Source: a virus
Lineage: Duplodnaviria; Caudoviricetes
Virus record (IMG/VR): IMGVR_UViG_3300028392_002123
Length of the DNA stretch: 64,000 nucleotides
Direction: 5' to 3' (one strand)
Under the pieces are notes generated by a model that made no database searches, had not been told where the DNA came from, and saw only the letters and a list, made by a program, of their open reading frames with translations. Shown piece after piece: positions 1,425-64,000 of the stretch. The position numbers and the translations under genes were made by a program. The first letter of the stretch is position 1. Each line of letters starts with the position of its first letter.

Positions 1425-2905
1425 ATGTAATTTTAGTCAATGGCATCTATGACTTGATGCCCAGTAGAAGTCTTGGTCCTTACTTGCTAAGACATGTGTT
1501 AGCCAAGAATGGCTATACCTGTCAAGTAATCGATCACTGTCAGGAATTCACAGCCGACGAACTCTACGCTACTATCAAACACTTTATCACCAAGGACACA
1601 GTATGCTTGGGATTCAGTACTACATTCTGGCGCGACATAGAACGTAAGATATGGAACAACAATGGCGGCATGCCGCCTAACTTAGACACAGCCAGTCGTA
1701 GAATTAAACAGGAATATCCCCATATTAAACTAGTGCTAGGTGGTGCAGGCATACGCAATGTGGGTGCCAAGGTGGATCACGTTGACGCACTGGTAGTGGG
1801 TGAAGCCGAAGACCTGTTCATTGAACTCTTAGATCACTGGACCAAAGGCACAGCAGAACCTCCACGTAAAACAAATACAACAGTGAACAAGCCCTACTAC
1901 AATCAATGTATAAACAAAGATTATGATGTCAGTACCTGCGACTTTATGTGGAGTTTCAGCGACGCAATTCTGCCCGGAGAACCCCTGCCCTTGGAAACAG
2001 CCAGGGGTTGTATTTTTAAGTGCAAGTTTTGTAGTTATCCGCACTTGGGTAAAAAGAAAATGGACTACTTAAAACCCATAGAACACATACGCGAACACAT
2101 GATGCACAACTATGAACGTTGGGGTACACGACACTATATCATGCTGGATGACACATTCAATGACAGTGAACACAAGATAGACACACTCTTGGACATGACT
2201 CGTCGATTGCCTTTTAAAATAGGCTATGTTGCTTATATTAGAGCTGACTTGGTGCATAGATTCAAAGGACAGGCGGAAAAGCTACAGGAGTCCGGACTTG
2301 AAAGCTGTTTCTTTGGACTTGAAAGTCTACACCCCCAGGCCAGTCAAGCAGTGGGCAAGGGCTGGAGTGGTCGACATGCCAGAGAATATATACCGCATTT
2401 ACTGCACGACATATGGCAGGATAAGGTCAATGTGACCACAGGCTTTATTGCAGGCCTACCCGGAGAAGACGCTGACAGTTTGCTGGACACACTTAAATGG
2501 GTCAATGACAATGGCATCATGACATTCTGGTTGGGCTTGGGTATCAGCAGTCCTGCCAGCTTGGCCGCAGGCAGCATGGATGGTGTGGCCTTTTACAGTG
2601 AGTTTGAACGTAACGCTGACAAATACGGCTATAAATTTGACAGCAAAGGTTGGTGGTACAATGATCTATGGACACATCATACTGCGGAAAAGTTTGCCAT
2701 GGAACGGCTTAACTATTATAGAAAACTTAAACGTATTAGCTGTTGGTTCCATATTCAGCTACGTGCCTTTGGCTACACAGACGACGAACTATGGGCCATT
2801 GCCGGCAGTCAACTCACACACAATGGCTTTTTAACAGATCAGACATTTCTGGACCGCAGAGACAAATACGTGGCTGACTATAAGAAATTGTTGTTGACAC
2901 TATAA
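1421..2905 (+). CDS. B12-binding-domain radical SAM enzyme
   Basis: ETARGCIFKCKFCSY (CxxxCxxC), DDTF, GLES; N-terminal cobalamin-binding-like domain (LVLGGAG, LVVGEAE). Confidence 0.85.
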   Translation: MNVILVNGIYDLMPSRSLGPYLLRHVLAKNGYTCQVIDHCQEFTADELYATIKHFITKDTVCLGFSTTFWRDIERKIWNNNGGMPPNLDTASRRIKQEYPHIKLVLGGAGIRNVGAKVDHVDALVVGEAEDLFIELLDHWTKGTAEPPRKTNTTVNKPYYNQCINKDYDVSTCDFMWSFSDAILPGEPLPLETARGCIFKCKFCSYPHLGKKKMDYLKPIEHIREHMMHNYERWGTRHYIMLDDTFNDSEHKIDTLLDMTRRLPFKIGYVAYIRADLVHRFKGQAEKLQESGLESCFFGLESLHPQASQAVGKGWSGRHAREYIPHLLHDIWQDKVNVTTGFIAGLPGEDADSLLDTLKWVNDNGIMTFWLGLGISSPASLAAGSMDGVAFYSEFERNADKYGYKFDSKGWWYNDLWTHHTAEKFAMERLNYYRKLKRISCWFHIQLRAFGYTDDELWAIAGSQLTHNGFLTDQTFLDRRDKYVADYKKLLLTL

Positions 2906-21368: not shown

Positions 21369-21460
21369 TGGTACCCCCGGCGGGAATCGAACCCACATGA
21401 ACCAATTATCTGTTGCTTACGGGATATAAATCCGCCGTTTTACCGTTAAACTACAGGGGC
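21369..21460 (-). tRNA. Atypical tRNA-Ile(TAT) with 22-nt variable arm
   Basis: Acceptor GCCCCTG/CGGGGGT, normal D and T arms, loop TT-TAT-AT, CCA. Confidence 0.7.
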
Positions 21461-23482: not shown

Positions 23483-24127
23483 TTACTTGACAAAATTTAC
23501 TTCTATTTTTTGTTTTGGAAAAGTGATGTAGTTGAAGTTTTCATTGACTTGATGCTGTGTGCGTTGTTTGTTTGGATCAGGAAATCCAATACCCAGTAAC
23601 AATAGCACTCCGCCTTCAGTGCCCAGAACTTTTTGTACTTTTGGGCCGTCGAAACAACCGCAGTAGCCAGTGGAATAGCCTAGCAAGTTCGCTGTAAGGT
23701 TCAAGTATCCAGATGCAATGCCCAAGGAGACTTCTCTGTCATTGTACAAAGCGTCGGGCACTCTTTCGTTGTCTTTTTCTAACCATGCCATTTGATCATT
23801 GCGATGTACACCTTCGTGTAAAACTGGTGTGACCATTTGATCTTCAAAAACCACTAACAAATTTGCCAATGTTTGTGTGTTTGTTTCGACAATATTTTTT
23901 TCCCTGTTAACTGTAAATCCATTGGTTAACCCATGTATAGTTTCAATGATATTTCTGTTAGTTATGAAATGACACTTATAGTAAGCTACGTTTTGTTTAC
24001 TGGGACATTGTGTAACTGCTGATACTAGTGTATCTAGATCTGCTTGCGGAATAGACTTAGTCAAATCCCAATTACGTTGGCAATGTTGACTTTTTTCAAT
24101 TATGGTTTCGATGTCATTGTTTGTCAT
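23483..24127 (-). CDS. Nitroreductase family protein
   Basis: SQHCQRNWD...QCPSKQN...ANLLGYSTGYCGC. Confidence 0.75.
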   Translation of the reverse strand: MTNNDIETIIEKSQHCQRNWDLTKSIPQADLDTLVSAVTQCPSKQNVAYYKCHFITNRNIIETIHGLTNGFTVNREKNIVETNTQTLANLLVVFEDQMVTPVLHEGVHRNDQMAWLEKDNERVPDALYNDREVSLGIASGYLNLTANLLGYSTGYCGCFDGPKVQKVLGTEGGVLLLLGIGFPDPNKQRTQHQVNENFNYITFPKQKIEVNFVK

Positions 24128-24138
24128 TGTATCTCCTA

Positions 24139-25056
24139 TTAACTAATATCTAATTTGTTATTTACAATGAAGGACATCAAAGATTTATTAGATCTCAGCA
24201 CCGTATTAGTCATCGATGATTCGGTGGATCCCACCGGCATCAGTCCTAGATTAAATACAGTTTCTTTAAATTCTTTATTTTTAAAAACACTGATTGCATC
24301 ACTGACAATTTTTTCTTTCATTGATTTACTCATTGATTTGGCTACCACTAAGCAAATATAACTTTGGTAAGGAAAAGATTCTTTAAAATATTTGTCCCAC
24401 GTAAGTATGTTATCTCCCATGTCGTGGCTGGCAAATAATATACTAACACGGCTGTCTCCGATAAAAGGTTTGACACTTGAATAGTTGCCAAATGTACAGT
24501 CTACTTGCCCTGCTAGAACATCCATGGCGCCTTTATTACCTCCACTGGGATAAGGAACGATAATGTGTTTTCCCTGAGCACGTACAAACAATGCTTCAGT
24601 GGCAATATGTTCTGAGCTACCATAGCCGTTGACTGCAAAACTTAGAGATTTTTTTGTGTTTAAAAACTCGTTGAACGTTGTGATACCCAGACCAGCTCTG
24701 CAAGCTAACAAATTAGGAAGTACAGCCACTGTTCCTAAAATTTCTAAATCTCGTTCAGTGTCGTATTCTAAGTCTTTATAATTTAAAGTGTTAGTGACAT
24801 AAATCTGTGGCATAGTGGCCATGAGCACACTTTCACCTTTGAGTACTTGTTTCATTGCCAGTCTGCCGGCCGCACCCGGACGATTCATAACAATATAATC
24901 TTCTATTGAGAGATTCTTGACTATCAGTCTAGTAATTCTATCACTGGGACCGCCAGGAGCATGATGCACAGTATACTCAATAATCGATGCAGGCTTTGCA
25001 CAGACAGAGAAAATTACCAGTGATATCACTAGTAAAAATTTAATTGTATTCTTCAT
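24139..25056 (-). CDS. Bug/TctC tripartite tricarboxylate transporter solute-binding protein
   Basis: Signal peptide, PGGPSD..TR, NRPGAAG, H.A.E, VPY..GG...DVLAGQVD. Confidence 0.85.
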   Translation of the reverse strand: MKNTIKFLLVISLVIFSVCAKPASIIEYTVHHAPGGPSDRITRLIVKNLSIEDYIVMNRPGAAGRLAMKQVLKGESVLMATMPQIYVTNTLNYKDLEYDTERDLEILGTVAVLPNLLACRAGLGITTFNEFLNTKKSLSFAVNGYGSSEHIATEALFVRAQGKHIIVPYPSGGNKGAMDVLAGQVDCTFGNYSSVKPFIGDSRVSILFASHDMGDNILTWDKYFKESFPYQSYICLVVAKSMSKSMKEKIVSDAISVFKNKEFKETVFNLGLMPVGSTESSMTNTVLRSNKSLMSFIVNNKLDIS

Positions 25057-25079
25057 ATATCTACTTATAAGCCAAGGCC

Positions 25080-26240
25080 TTAAGTTGCATACTGCGGCAA
25101 CAGGCCTGGTATTGGACCTAAGTCATAAAACTTATGGAAATGTTTTAAACCATCCCCGCTGTCATTGACAAAATCAGACAAGGTAGTATTGACATATTCA
25201 ATGCCCTCTCTCCAAATATTAACAGCCTTTGTGTGGGAGTATCCGTCTTTGAACCATAAATCGAATTCACTGTACCAGTCTGATGTAGATTTATCTGCTT
25301 GCCACCAATTGGTATCCCATGTTGAATATATCACACTTCTTAGCACTCGTTCGTGAATCAAACGAACTTTTTCATGTGTGATGTTGGGTGCATACCAGTG
25401 TTCTTGCATGTGAGGATTGGCCGCCAAATATTTTTTAATTACATGCCCCTGCTTTATCAATAAAGGAACACAGTCGGGGCTCCAATAAAAGAATTCAGCC
25501 ATGGCATTTGGATATTCTCTAAAATGCTCAGCTACTGTATTTTGATTAGCGGCACGATCTACAAAGCGCATCAATAGTTTACCATCGGCAATGGCTACCC
25601 TGGGTTTTTCAATGCCGATTATCATGCATATCTTTTTATCTTTATCGAATTGTTTTCTCACGTCTGCTAGAGCCAGATAATTGAAACGTGTGGCACCTGC
25701 AGGATTTATACCTTCGCGTTTGGTAAGAACCCAACTAGCATCTCCAGTGCCTTCCATAAAATCAAATAAATGATCACTTAGGTCAGCCACAGTAATTTTT
25801 GTTTTAGGTATCAGCGGTGCAATCTCTTTTAACCTAGGCATAGTCTGCAGATAGTGTTCTGCACCAGCGTTTTTTGCATCCATGTTTGCAGGATTTAAAT
25901 CGATGAACTGTTTACTGGCTTTTTCAAAATGATTAACAACTATTTCATCTACGTGCAGGCCTTGACGCACAAAGCTCATTAGAATATTGTTACTGTCTGC
26001 TCCGCCACTATAACTTATCATAACATAGTCATATCGTTCTCGTAGCTGTCGAGCTCGTCGATTATATAGTTCATCCAATGATTCTTCGGGCTCAACAGCC
26101 CAGTTATAAGAATCGAATACTCTGTCATTAAAAATCCAATTAACTGGTTTATTAACTTGAGTACTATGTAGACATGCTAAAATTTTTGAAGTGAATTCTT
26201 TGCCATCGCAGACATAGAATCCTAACTCTCTGTTGATCAT
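25080..26240 (-). CDS. PP-loop ATPase-like protein
   Basis: ISYSGGADSNN, GIEKP, FFYWS. Confidence 0.65.
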   Translation of the reverse strand: MINRELGFYVCDGKEFTSKILACLHSTQVNKPVNWIFNDRVFDSYNWAVEPEESLDELYNRRARQLRERYDYVMISYSGGADSNNILMSFVRQGLHVDEIVVNHFEKASKQFIDLNPANMDAKNAGAEHYLQTMPRLKEIAPLIPKTKITVADLSDHLFDFMEGTGDASWVLTKREGINPAGATRFNYLALADVRKQFDKDKKICMIIGIEKPRVAIADGKLLMRFVDRAANQNTVAEHFREYPNAMAEFFYWSPDCVPLLIKQGHVIKKYLAANPHMQEHWYAPNITHEKVRLIHERVLRSVIYSTWDTNWWQADKSTSDWYSEFDLWFKDGYSHTKAVNIWREGIEYVNTTLSDFVNDSGDGLKHFHKFYDLGPIPGLLPQYAT

Positions 26241-26286
26241 TGATTGTTCTCGGTAAATATTTTGCTACAATATTTAGTGAGCTATA

Positions 26287-27225
26287 ATGAAATCTGGATT
26301 TGAAAATAACAAGTTTTACGTCGAATATACCAGCCCTGGCCGGAAGATTGGTAATATGCGCGAAGAGCTTGATCTAGCGGTTAAAACAATTTCCGATTCT
26401 AGTGGCGACAAGTTACTGTTAGGTCTTAGCAGTGGCTTGGACAGTCAAGTAATACTACACAGTCTACACGAACAAGGTTTGCCATATACCTGTGCATTTT
26501 TATACATGCCAGGATACAATGATCATGAATACAACAATGTAAAAGTTTTGGAAAAGAAATATGGTTTCAATGCATTGATAGCTGAAATCGATCCTGCCAA
26601 AGAAAAAGATGAAGTATTAGACCAAGCCTATTCTCAGCACATACTTCCCAATCATTTCATGCATAAAAAGTTTTTATCATTGTTGCCCGCGGACATGGAT
26701 TACTTGAACGGTATCGAAGGACCCGACATTGTGATGAATGAAGAATCTGGTAAAAGATATATCATGGAGGCCCATTGGAATTTTGAAAATACTAGACTAA
26801 GAACATTGCGTAGCTTAGATAGGTCAGGCAAAGTATTAAACATTGATCGTAACGAAACCAGTGAAGCGTTCTTACTCAGTATAATCAACGATGCTGTATT
26901 CAGAGGTTATATCAACAGTATTCGTTATATTTTACACAATGACCTTGTTGACGGATCAGGTAAAAAGCCGGGCATTATATTCAACTACAATTATTATATC
27001 AAACCCATCATCATGGGAAGATACTGGGGTCATGAGCTATTGTATTTCCCAAAATCTATGGGCGTGGAAAAAATAGATTGGATTATGAACTGTCCCATTA
27101 AAAGTACATATAGTCGAGATGTTGTTCACACTGAATATTATACTCTGAGAAAATTCTTGTTACAAGATAAAGTAGATGTACTGAGAATGGAAGACAAATT
27201 GCCTACATCAGAGGCCCACAGTTAA
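26287..27225 (+). CDS. PP-loop-like protein
   Basis: LGLSSGLDSQ; paralog of 16184..17095. Confidence 0.6.
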   Translation: MKSGFENNKFYVEYTSPGRKIGNMREELDLAVKTISDSSGDKLLLGLSSGLDSQVILHSLHEQGLPYTCAFLYMPGYNDHEYNNVKVLEKKYGFNALIAEIDPAKEKDEVLDQAYSQHILPNHFMHKKFLSLLPADMDYLNGIEGPDIVMNEESGKRYIMEAHWNFENTRLRTLRSLDRSGKVLNIDRNETSEAFLLSIINDAVFRGYINSIRYILHNDLVDGSGKKPGIIFNYNYYIKPIIMGRYWGHELLYFPKSMGVEKIDWIMNCPIKSTYSRDVVHTEYYTLRKFLLQDKVDVLRMEDKLPTSEAHS

Positions 27226-28140
27226 TTCTTCTACAATCTGTTTAACTGGTTTAATACTAGTAATATGATCTATTGCACCACCAGCAAAGACGTGTCCTTC
27301 GTTGGGACTTTGAATACCTTTTGCTAGTCCGTATGTATTATTTTCTATGTCAAGAGCAGTTTTACTAAACAAAAAACCACTTTGGTTTGCTGTTCCTATT
27401 TTTACAGTTTCCGAGTAGGATGATTCTAACATTTTCTTTTTAGTTTCCAGCGACACAACTGATTCTTCCGACACCGCAAAAACTGTGCCGAGACTGACAA
27501 TATTCGCACCTGCAGAAAGATGTTCTTTTATTCCCTGACTGTCATATATTCCGCCTTGTGCTATAATAATCCAATTTGGTTTTAACAAACGTAAAGCACG
27601 TATAGCTTCTACTAGATCAAATGTTGTCGAAGAAACTCTACCTGCACCTTTATCACCTTTGAGTATGATACCATCTAAGGAATTCATAACATTTGAATTT
27701 TTATTCAAATGTTCGATCACAGTTTCAAATGAAAGGAATTTACCTAGTACCTTAGTTCCATTTTCTTGAACTTGTTTTAATAATCTAGGAAAACGTGGAT
27801 CTGTGACAAAGTAGTTGTCAAACATTTCTATGTACGCTGGCTTTAACTCTAAGATAATTTTAAATGTTTCTGTGGAATCAGTGAAAATAGGTGTGTTAAG
27901 TCCTAGTATAAAATCCGAATCACCTACTTTGTTTATATAGTATGTTAGATGTTCTCTTAGAACTTTTGGATCGTATATAAAAGTAGATCCTGTTTGAACA
28001 GTATGATTAAATGTAACAAAACTGGGATAACATCCTGTTTCTTTGACTGCCAGTGCCAACTTGACGTTGGACACAGTGGTCATCCCGGAACAGATAATGG
28101 GATACTTAGAATTAAAATTATTTTGATGATCTGTGTACAT
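27208..28140 (-). CDS. Nitronate monooxygenase / FabK-like FMN oxidoreductase (start moved to MYTDHQ)
   Basis: PIICSGM, G..GAG, IIAQGGI, GA..V.LGT.F; TATAAATA at 28148-28155. Confidence 0.75.
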   Translation of the reverse strand: MYTDHQNNFNSKYPIICSGMTTVSNVKLALAVKETGCYPSFVTFNHTVQTGSTFIYDPKVLREHLTYYINKVGDSDFILGLNTPIFTDSTETFKIILELKPAYIEMFDNYFVTDPRFPRLLKQVQENGTKVLGKFLSFETVIEHLNKNSNVMNSLDGIILKGDKGAGRVSSTTFDLVEAIRALRLLKPNWIIIAQGGIYDSQGIKEHLSAGANIVSLGTVFAVSEESVVSLETKKKMLESSYSETVKIGTANQSGFLFSKTALDIENNTYGLAKGIQSPNEGHVFAGGAIDHITSIKPVKQIVEELTVGL

Positions 28141-28176
28141 ATGAAAATATTTATAGCACACTATCATCTATAATAT

Positions 28177-28261: not shown

Positions 28262-28471
28262 TTATTTGTTAGGTCTAATCTTTAAGAGATAGTCTCGGCC
28301 AACATGGCCTTCTTCGACTTCTCTTAGAGCTGTAACTGTTTTACTAGGACTAGGTTTAACCATTGGTGTTGCACCGGCGTACAATTCTCTAACTCGTAAC
28401 GAAGCTACTAGAACTAAATCAAATCTATTTCCAATTTGCTCGACTGCTTTTTCACTTGTAATTCTTGCCAT
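28262..28471 (-). CDS. rpoZ: RNA polymerase omega subunit
   Basis: [27 protein letters not shown]...K.TVTALREV. Confidence 0.9.
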
Positions 28472-28491
28472 GATAAACCTTATTAAAAAAA

Positions 28492-28750
28492 TGCTCTGGC
28501 ATCCCTCGGCGGTAATTATAGTGTATCAGAAATTTCGTCAAGTTGCCCCAACTAGTCTATTCATCACCTCCACCTCCACCCGCTTCCCGACAGGAACCGT
28601 TCTCGTATTGCCAACGCCGGTTAGGTTGAACCGCACATACATCCATGTTCTATCATGGCCTCTGTGTGAAACTTTTCGTTTCAGAACCACCCGTGTGTGT
28701 CATCACACTTCTCATCGTCTGGGTCAGACTATCCAGTGACGCTGGAACGT
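28492..28750 (-). ncRNA. Candidate structured ncRNA between tRNA-Ser(GCT) and rpoZ
   Basis: GC-rich, at least 8 short hairpins, no credible minus-strand ORF. Confidence 0.55.
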
Positions 28751-28752
28751 TT

Positions 28753-28840
28753 TGGCGGAGCATGTAGGAATCGAACCTACTCACCCATTGCTGAATGACA
28801 GATTAGCAATCTGTTGCCTTAACCGGTCGGCCAATGCTCC
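28753..28840 (-). tRNA. tRNA-Ser(GCT)
   Basis: Loop TT-GCT-AA, long variable arm, CCA. Confidence 0.95.
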
Positions 28841-28931: not shown

Positions 28932-28998
28932 AATAAAACTATTATAACAGGTTATTTATATGTTGTCTACTTCTTTTTTTATTTAATTTAAAATAATT

Positions 28999-63513: not shown

Positions 63514-64000
63514 AGAAACCCGCCGAAGCGGGTTCTGAGTTTCTGTTACGAGGTATGTCTTACCCTAAGCGGAGTTTAGGCCGCTAAAGCGAACTGTTCG
63601 TCGTTTGCATTTACGTTTTTTGTGTCTTCGACCGGGTTCCCCCAATCCTAACGGCTTCTACATTGCCGGACTGTCCATTTCATTACTCTTGACCCTGTCG
63701 AAACCATGGCAGGCCCATCATAAGAAAACTCAATTAAATGTCATATGACCGGTTGCGTATAATACTGCCATTACAGGACCAGCTATATGCTCTCCGATTT
63801 CATACAACGCCCATACAGTTAGCGCCACTGCCCACCATGGATTAGATTCCGCTTTTTGACCTAACCAGGTAAAAAACTTTCCATGAGCACGACCAATTGC
63901 ATTTGCAAATTTAACTATCATAACAAACTTCCTTATGGTGGACCTGGCGGGAGTCGAACCCGCGTCCAGAATGCCTTCACTTTGAAGGGATTACAACTAT
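63514..64000 (-). ncRNA. ssrA: Circularly permuted (two-piece) tmRNA gene; 5' end may lie just outside the window
   Basis: Acceptor piece ending T-arm + CAGGTCC-A-CCA (63936) precedes coding piece GGGCCTG (63716); G3.U70; tag ANDEQFALAA* at 63576-63608; terminator 63514-63537. Confidence 0.92.
63730..63921 (-). CDS. 63-aa hydrophobic ORF inside the tmRNA intervening segment
   Basis: TAAGGAAG SD directly after CCA; ORF fills the intervening segment. Confidence 0.6.
   Translation of the reverse strand: MIVKFANAIGRAHGKFFTWLGQKAESNPWWAVALTVWALYEIGEHIAGPVMAVLYATGHMTFN

Follow-up and report, generated by a model that had tools for sequence, protein, structure and literature searches.

A conserved RNA fold beside phage tRNA genes: a candidate RNA family of uncultivated jumbo phages

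A 64,000-nucleotide stretch of DNA from a virus of the Caudoviricetes (IMG/VR record IMGVR_UViG_3300028392_002123; hereafter the window) carries, between a tRNA-Ser gene and a gene for the omega subunit of RNA polymerase (rpoZ), a segment of some 260 nt that a first-pass annotation of the sequence read as a hairpin-dense non-coding RNA of no known class, with a possible link to RNA polymerase. This raises the question of what the segment is, and of whether the neighbouring polymerase gene has any bearing on its function. Among the genes of the window are 20 for tRNAs and one for a permuted tmRNA. Most of its proteins are orphans, and a blastn search of GenBank phages with a 7.9-kb query from the window matched nothing but tRNAs. 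Related IMG/VR contigs reach up to 525 kb. Because of the orphan proteins, the tRNA-only GenBank matches and the size of these relatives, the window is, judging from sequence comparison, part of an uncultivated jumbo-phage contig. The immediate surroundings of the segment, in the direction of transcription, are as follows.

28941-28969 (-): sigma-70-like promoter, TAGACA-17-TATAAT with TG, 11/12 matches, a consensus match only
28753-28840 (-): tRNA-Ser(GCU) with encoded CCA, whose last A (28753) abuts position 1 of the RNA (28752)
~28487-28752 (-): RNA gene, ~265-266 nt, 5' end set from the tRNA CCA and the family alignment
28485-28491 (-): U7 run after the RNA
28262-28471 (-): rpoZ (RNA polymerase omega), 69 aa, Pfam RNA_pol_Rpb6, E 1.9e-12

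The 3' end of the RNA is approximate and falls inside the U run, the first-pass annotation having placed the whole element at 28492-28750. The promoter-like site stands just upstream of tRNA-Leu, at the head of a unit of the tRNA array whose likely order, as read from the sequence, is promoter, tRNA-Leu, tRNA-Ser, RNA, rpoZ and tRNA-Arg. The unusual base composition attributed to the segment was borne out, with a GC content of 49% against 31-42% in the flanks and a transcribed (minus) strand that is 58% purine. The presence of a phage omega gene within a tRNA island is an observation in its own right.

Homologs of the segment were obtained initially from loci retrieved via the neighbouring rpoZ protein, in some of which the RNA lies directly upstream of rpoZ and in others after tRNA-Ser(GCU), about 1 kb away from rpoZ, and then through three motif scans of IMG/VR. 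Together, these searches identified the RNA in at least about 150 phage loci and yielded at least 102 unique sequences, ranging from 175 to 282 nt and most commonly 202-204 nt long. The family was defined by two alignments, A1 (57 full-length sequences) and A3, and by R1, a covariance model of the 5' domain. Positions 28574-28752 of the window (minus strand) align to R1 with 117 bits (E 3.5e-42), covering the whole model. The window copy has the hairpins P1-P5, the GAUGAGAA linker, the GGGUGGU sequence and the UGGCAAU loop of the 5' domain, together with the H1/H2 stack, GGAA bulge, UAUAAUUA strand and CAGAGCA tail of the 3' domain; it lies on the tRNA strand of a phage tRNA cluster and abuts a tRNA 3' end. 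By sequence, it appears to be one member of the family, enlarged by an insertion. The search patterns fixed some bases, so that part of the apparent invariance reported below reflects ascertainment, and members were also gathered with two other patterns to offset this effect.

Outside IMG/VR, GenBank phages yielded no homolog by blastn, whether the query was the window copy or a typical one, and a pattern scan of GTDB bacterial genomes yielded no homolog among the 120 matches listed. A search with R1 produced only spurious matches of 17-21 bits with large deletions in 151 Burkholderiales genomes, and no homolog in 5 other genomes. Within the databases sampled, the family thus far appears to be restricted to phages. 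Searches of the published literature with motif strings and topics found no description of this RNA family. Each locus has one full copy. In locus L331, an additional ~40-nt truncated piece (1559-1600, plus strand), which matches a typical member over its 5' tail, P1 and P2, lies 600 nt upstream of a divergent full-length copy on the same contig, and may be a recombination remnant.

Comparative analysis strongly supports a conserved fold, derived here from aligned sequences. The hand-derived structure leaves 94.5% of pair cells paired across the full length of A1, against 35-44% in slid controls, with compensatory changes at 37 pairs (12-22 in the slid controls) and a covariation score of 0.367 (at most 0.084 in controls). 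For the 5' domain, the 101 sequences aligned to R1 are 98.7% paired, with a score of 0.45 (at most 0.083 in controls). The folding energy of the single sequence is near chance (z = -0.63 for the minus strand and +0.10 for the plus strand), and the support for the fold is comparative, not thermodynamic. The fold comprises five 5' hairpins (P1-P5), a long-range H1/H2 stack and an H3 arm with a kink-turn, which are arranged in the window copy as listed here from 5' to 3'.

28732-28746 (-): P1 hairpin UCCAG/CUGGA, 5/5 pairs covarying
28717-28729 (-): P2 hairpin GUCUG/CAGAC, stem covarying
28721-28724 (-): P2 loop ACCC, predicted to pair with GGGU of J3/4 (pseudoknot K1)
28709-28716 (-): J2/3 linker GAUGAGAA, nearly invariant in the family
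28695-28708 (-): P3 hairpin GUGUG/CACAC, with compensatory changes
28686-28692 (-): J3/4 linker GGGUGGU, proposed partner of the P2 loop (K1) and the P4 loop (K2)
28634-28685 (-): lineage-specific insertion of ~50 nt after GGGUGGU, with two hairpins
28668-28682 (-): insertion hairpin GAAAC/GUUUC
28643-28658 (-): insertion hairpin CCAUG/CAUGG
28618-28633 (-): P4 hairpin CGGUU/AACCG, loop ACC predicted to pair with GGU of J3/4 (K2)
28604-28616 (-): P5, 3-bp stem and 7-nt loop UGGCAAU, from the alignment
28588-28597 (-): H1 5' strand and extension (GUUCCU, GU bulge, CG), 7/8 pairs covarying
28580-28587 (-): GGAA bulge, then H2 5' strand GCGG, with H2 covariation
28521-28573 (-): H3 arm, with kink-turn GUGAUGA ... 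CUGA (3-nt bulge, tandem G.A) and tip AGUUG/CAACU
28501-28520 (-): UAUAAUUA internal-loop strand, then CCGC (H2), CG (H1 extension) and AGGGAU (H1)
28485-28500 (-): 3' tail GCCAGAGCA, conserved, then U7, from the alignment

Seven of the eight hairpins that the first-pass annotation had listed are real. Four of them (TCCAG/CTGGA, GTCTG/CAGAC, GTGT/ACAC and CGGTT/AACCG) are the family helices P1-P4, in which compensatory changes are abundant. Two more belong to the insertion: GAAAC/GTTTC keeps its pairing through changes in locus L307, and CCATG/CATGG is identical in sequence there, hence uninformative. AGTTG/CAACT is the variable tip of H3, common to L307 and L386 and present in a weaker form in L139. 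The eighth pair, TTCC/GGAA, does not form a hairpin: the partner of GUUCCU is AGGGAU, close to the 3' end, the two making up H1, and GGAA forms a conserved bulge that separates H1 from H2. Most members are devoid of the insertion, which the window has in common with its close relative L307. Unrelated insertions occupy the same site in L275/L278 and in L364/L375, and because different lineages hold unrelated insertions there, the position after GGGUGGU is, on these alignments, an expansion site.

In its family form, H1 pairs GUCCC with GGGAU and continues over a GU bulge into a C-G pair, which becomes U-A in three members. H2 pairs GCGG with CCGC, and its central C-G pair is replaced by A-U in four sequences and by U-A in three. 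P5 of the window has a U-A pair where most members have C-G. The base helix of H3 covaries, its tip is variable, and the kink-turn is absent from the 175-nt members; the motif at the base of H3, as read from sequence, appears to be a canonical C/D-type kink-turn. The kink-turn region of the window copy (28563-28571, minus strand) also holds GGAGGUGAU, which we take to be complementary at all 9 positions to the 3' tail of 16S rRNA, as an extended Shine-Dalgarno would be; its presence is specific to the window and not a feature of the family.

The GGGUGGU linker is invariant in 93 of 101 sequences and is complementary to both the ACCC loop of P2 (K1) and the ACC loop of P4 (K2). Both loop-to-linker pseudoknots are probable because of rare compensated variants in three loci. 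In L331, a GUCC loop in P2 faces GGAC in the linker, giving two compensated K1 pairs, and the linker presents CUU or CCU opposite AGG in the P4 loop; in L287 and L366 the stems have diverged throughout, yet both swap A-U for G-C in K1. An alternative register, pairing the P4 loop with the first GGU and the P2 loop with the second, suits L287 and L366 but fails in L331. Two further candidate elements were rejected. A P0 helix joining a 5' CGU to the ACG before H1 involves nearly invariant positions, and AACCC variants break its pairing; a 5' palindrome (GAACGUUC), considered as a dimerisation site, is not conserved, with CCGU and CCCG variants. The 5' domain has 42 invariant columns among its 131 positions, and conservation in its junctions and loops appears to reach the degree that is typical of ribozymes, riboswitches and RNAs with a precise tertiary core. 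A joint change in L372, L392 and L398, in which the P5 loop UGGCAAU becomes UGGCAGC together with a change from GAGAACGG to GAGAGCGG before H1, hints at a further loop-to-linker contact going from U-A to C-G.

We compared the RNA with known families using Rfam 15. Neither a search of the whole window at gathering thresholds nor a search with three members at E<=10 found a family for it, the latter returning chance matches only (snoRNA, miRNA). No RNase P model matched the three members at E<=10, and the CR-I to CR-V/P4 motifs were not seen in the alignment; the SRP (4.5S), 6S, tmRNA, 5S rRNA, group I intron and T-box models gave no match at E<=10 either. These results agree with the earlier remark that the hallmarks of RNase P and SRP are missing. 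The tmRNA of the window (63576-63998) is a separate gene. To the eye, GGGUGGUA...UACCGCC resembles T-box sequence and GACCC...GAAGU...GGUAGU...GCGAGA resembles 5S words, which might suggest a highly divergent RNase P, SRP, 5S, tmRNA piece, group I intron or T-box; however, besides the lack of any Rfam model reaching E<=10 with the three members, the helix topology fits none of these candidates and the T-box-like words are themselves taken up by internal pairings (K1/K2 and H2), leaving such an identity very improbable. The likenesses to T-box and 5S words, as well as others to SAM-I, group I and CsrA-site words, were all noted by eye and carry no statistical support.

Closer parallels exist among phage RNAs found near tRNA genes. 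The stable RNAs rnaC (species 1) and rnaD (species 2) of phage T4 are, like the present RNA, non-coding, lie in a phage tRNA cluster on the tRNA strand and abut tRNAs (record NC_000866). They are shorter, at 119 and 139 nt, whereas the present family has a predicted pseudoknotted, multi-helix fold, and a search of the T4 region with R1, filters off, gave at most 4.6 bits (3.9 bits over rnaD and tRNA-Arg), indicating no homology. GOLLD and ROOL (RF03087) are reportedly large structured orphan RNAs of phages and prophages, often encoded beside tRNA genes. At roughly 580-800 nt, they differ in size from the present family, whose 175-282 nt members are typically ~200 nt long, and their Rfam models gave no match to the window at gathering thresholds or to the three members at E<=10.

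The plus strand of the segment contains an 89-aa open reading frame (28470-28739), whose conservation and translation the first-pass annotation had named as evidence against an RNA. The frame exists, and stop-free antisense frames span at least 90% of the RNA in 31 of 57 members, a consequence of the antisense strand being pyrimidine-rich. Against a real gene, indels in L307 split the 89-aa frame over three frames, L275 and L278 differ by a frameshift, member lengths differ by non-multiples of 3, stem substitutions are compensatory and many members have flanking tRNAs only 0-6 nt away; a coding role can be all but dismissed. With its structure conserved through strong covariation, no Rfam match and an antisense frame that is not conserved, the proposal of an uncatalogued non-coding RNA holds.

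The genomic context of the family is dominated by tRNAs. The RNA starts at most 4 nt from the 3' end of a same-strand tRNA in 57 of the 102 unique members (56%), and in 54 of these 57 it is immediately preceded by CCA; in 28 of the 102 (27%), a tRNA follows within 6 nt downstream. Neither neighbour is fixed in identity, the upstream tRNAs including Tyr, Ser, Asp, Arg and Asn, among others, and the downstream ones Ala, Cys, Ile, Met and Thr, among others. Where open reading frames follow, they are unrelated (rpoZ, a 70-aa protein, a 93-aa protein and others). By analogy with T4 species 1 and 2, such a placement would be expected of a stable RNA that is produced and trimmed together with tRNAs.

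We therefore favour, with a probability of roughly 0.55, a stable, trans-acting RNA cut from a tRNA precursor and belonging to an uncatalogued jumbo-phage family. Under this model, the RNA would be transcribed together with the tRNAs, in the window from the promoter-like site upstream of tRNA-Leu, and excised by the enzymes that mature its neighbours. Its 5' end would lie directly after the CCA of the upstream tRNA, and, where a tRNA follows, the RNase P cut at that tRNA would set its 3' end. Since about 40% of members lack an adjacent tRNA on the upstream side, tRNA enzymes would not be the sole route to the 5' end. The P2 and P4 loops would both dock on the GGGUGGU linker, producing a compact fold. 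Conservation and context suggest a stable product that works in trans by binding a macromolecule, most likely a component of tRNA or translation metabolism or a host factor that the phage must neutralise. It would not be a regulator of rpoZ, even if, in the window and in about 11 other loci, it may remain as the 5' leader of the rpoZ transcript.

The polymerase link suggested for the window is a point at which this model departs from the earlier reading, and two alternatives build on it. The RNA could be a cis-acting leader, a riboswitch or attenuator, for rpoZ or for whichever gene follows. In the window it ends in U7, 16 nt ahead of the rpoZ start codon; rpoZ comes immediately after the RNA in about 12 of the 147 loci listed, in three lineages; and members followed by an open reading frame tend to end in ...GCAUUUU, then a Shine-Dalgarno. 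The U-tract end described for the window is thus present there, but it is not a feature of the family: members followed by a tRNA end in ...CAGAGCA plus ~3 nt, the U run is not conserved, and terminator prediction called none at the run in the window. Instead of a consistent position before one gene family, the RNA is elsewhere followed by tRNAs, which lie within 6 nt downstream in the 28 members counted above, or by open reading frames of unrelated families, and five contigs carrying the closest relatives of the window rpoZ have the RNA 6-11 kb away. A leader function is consequently improbable, and the proximity of rpoZ is a chance outcome of local gene order that does not characterise the family. 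Alternatively, the RNA could bind RNA polymerase in the manner of 6S RNA, working with the phage omega subunit. The two genes do occur together in 10 of 10 large contigs tested, three of them at least 92% complete, including 5 of 5 RNA-bearing large contigs that had been picked regardless of rpoZ; where both lie within one locus they share a strand, with rpoZ downstream of the RNA in 37 of 40 cases. Yet adjacency is rare, the 6S model gave no match, the fold is predicted to be a multi-hairpin pseudoknot and not a long bubble-containing duplex, the RNA was not found in five contigs with more distant rpoZ genes, though these are fragments, and both genes may simply mark the tRNA island of one phage clade. 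A 6S-like role is accordingly quite improbable. The clade-level association between rpoZ and the RNA stands, and the specific functional one is weak.

Two other alternatives share with the favoured model the origin of the RNA beside phage tRNAs and differ in what it would do. One is a ribozyme that processes the tRNA array, RNase-P-like or self-cleaving at the junction, or that acts on tRNA ends. Conservation of ribozyme or riboswitch grade, the double pseudoknot and the abutment of position 1 on a tRNA CCA in 54 of 102 members speak for it; no ribozyme model, RNase P, HDV-like, hammerhead and twister included, matched the three members at E<=10, the members that are not preceded by a tRNA speak against it, and part of the invariance is ascertainment bias, so that we consider a ribozyme unlikely. 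The other is a decoy or sponge serving counter-defence or takeover, made in bulk along with the phage tRNAs and sequestering a host nuclease, sensor or RNA-binding protein. Phage tRNAs may themselves offset host defences that target tRNAs. Co-transcription with these tRNAs, which the context suggests, would suit a decoy, as would motifs of protein-binding type (the kink-turn and conserved bulges) and a distribution limited to phages in the databases sampled. However, an L7Ae-type kink-turn binder is not encoded in 5 of 5 near-complete genomes, and the shortest (175-nt) members have no kink-turn arm; both the decoy role and the bulk production that it presumes are improbable.

A broader and speculative possibility, which we also regard as unlikely, is that the family is a catalytic or tRNA-handling RNA machine brought along with the tRNA sets of giant phages. 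If true, it would be a compact ribozyme, or a binder of the tRNA end or elbow, with a role in maturing, repairing or protecting the tRNA pool of the phage, and with the double loop-to-linker pseudoknot as its active or binding core. The translation toolkits of giant phages comprise dozens of tRNAs and tmRNA, to which the trans-acting RNA favoured here would add a conserved, single-copy folded RNA. Knowing its partner could bring to light a new means by which phages handle tRNA metabolism, translation or host defence, and would give a function to a class of RNA that, from species 1 and 2 of T4 onwards, has had no explanation. For annotation, GC-rich gaps within the tRNA arrays of phages would have to be treated as genes and not as spacers.

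Several other features of the tRNA islands were recorded. At 21369-21460 (minus strand), the window encodes an unusually long tRNA of 92 nt, called by ARAGORN as Ile(UAU), with an extra arm of ~20 nt and an encoded CCA; comparable long Ile(UAU) calls of 90-95 nt occur in the related loci L013 (5821-5911), L028 (1132-1221) and L031 (827-921). The tmRNA at the edge of the window is a permuted, two-piece gene on the minus strand (63485-64029 in the ARAGORN call) with the tag ANDEQFALAA, and two relatives carry a tmRNA alongside the RNA in one tRNA island, with the tags ANDELYALAA (L010) and ANDEVYALAA (L012). Auxiliary-metabolic-like genes flank the island in the window at 23483-28167, as follows.

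23483-24127: nitroreductase-like gene
24139-25056: TctC-like solute-binding protein gene
27208-28167: NMO/IMPDH-like oxidoreductase gene
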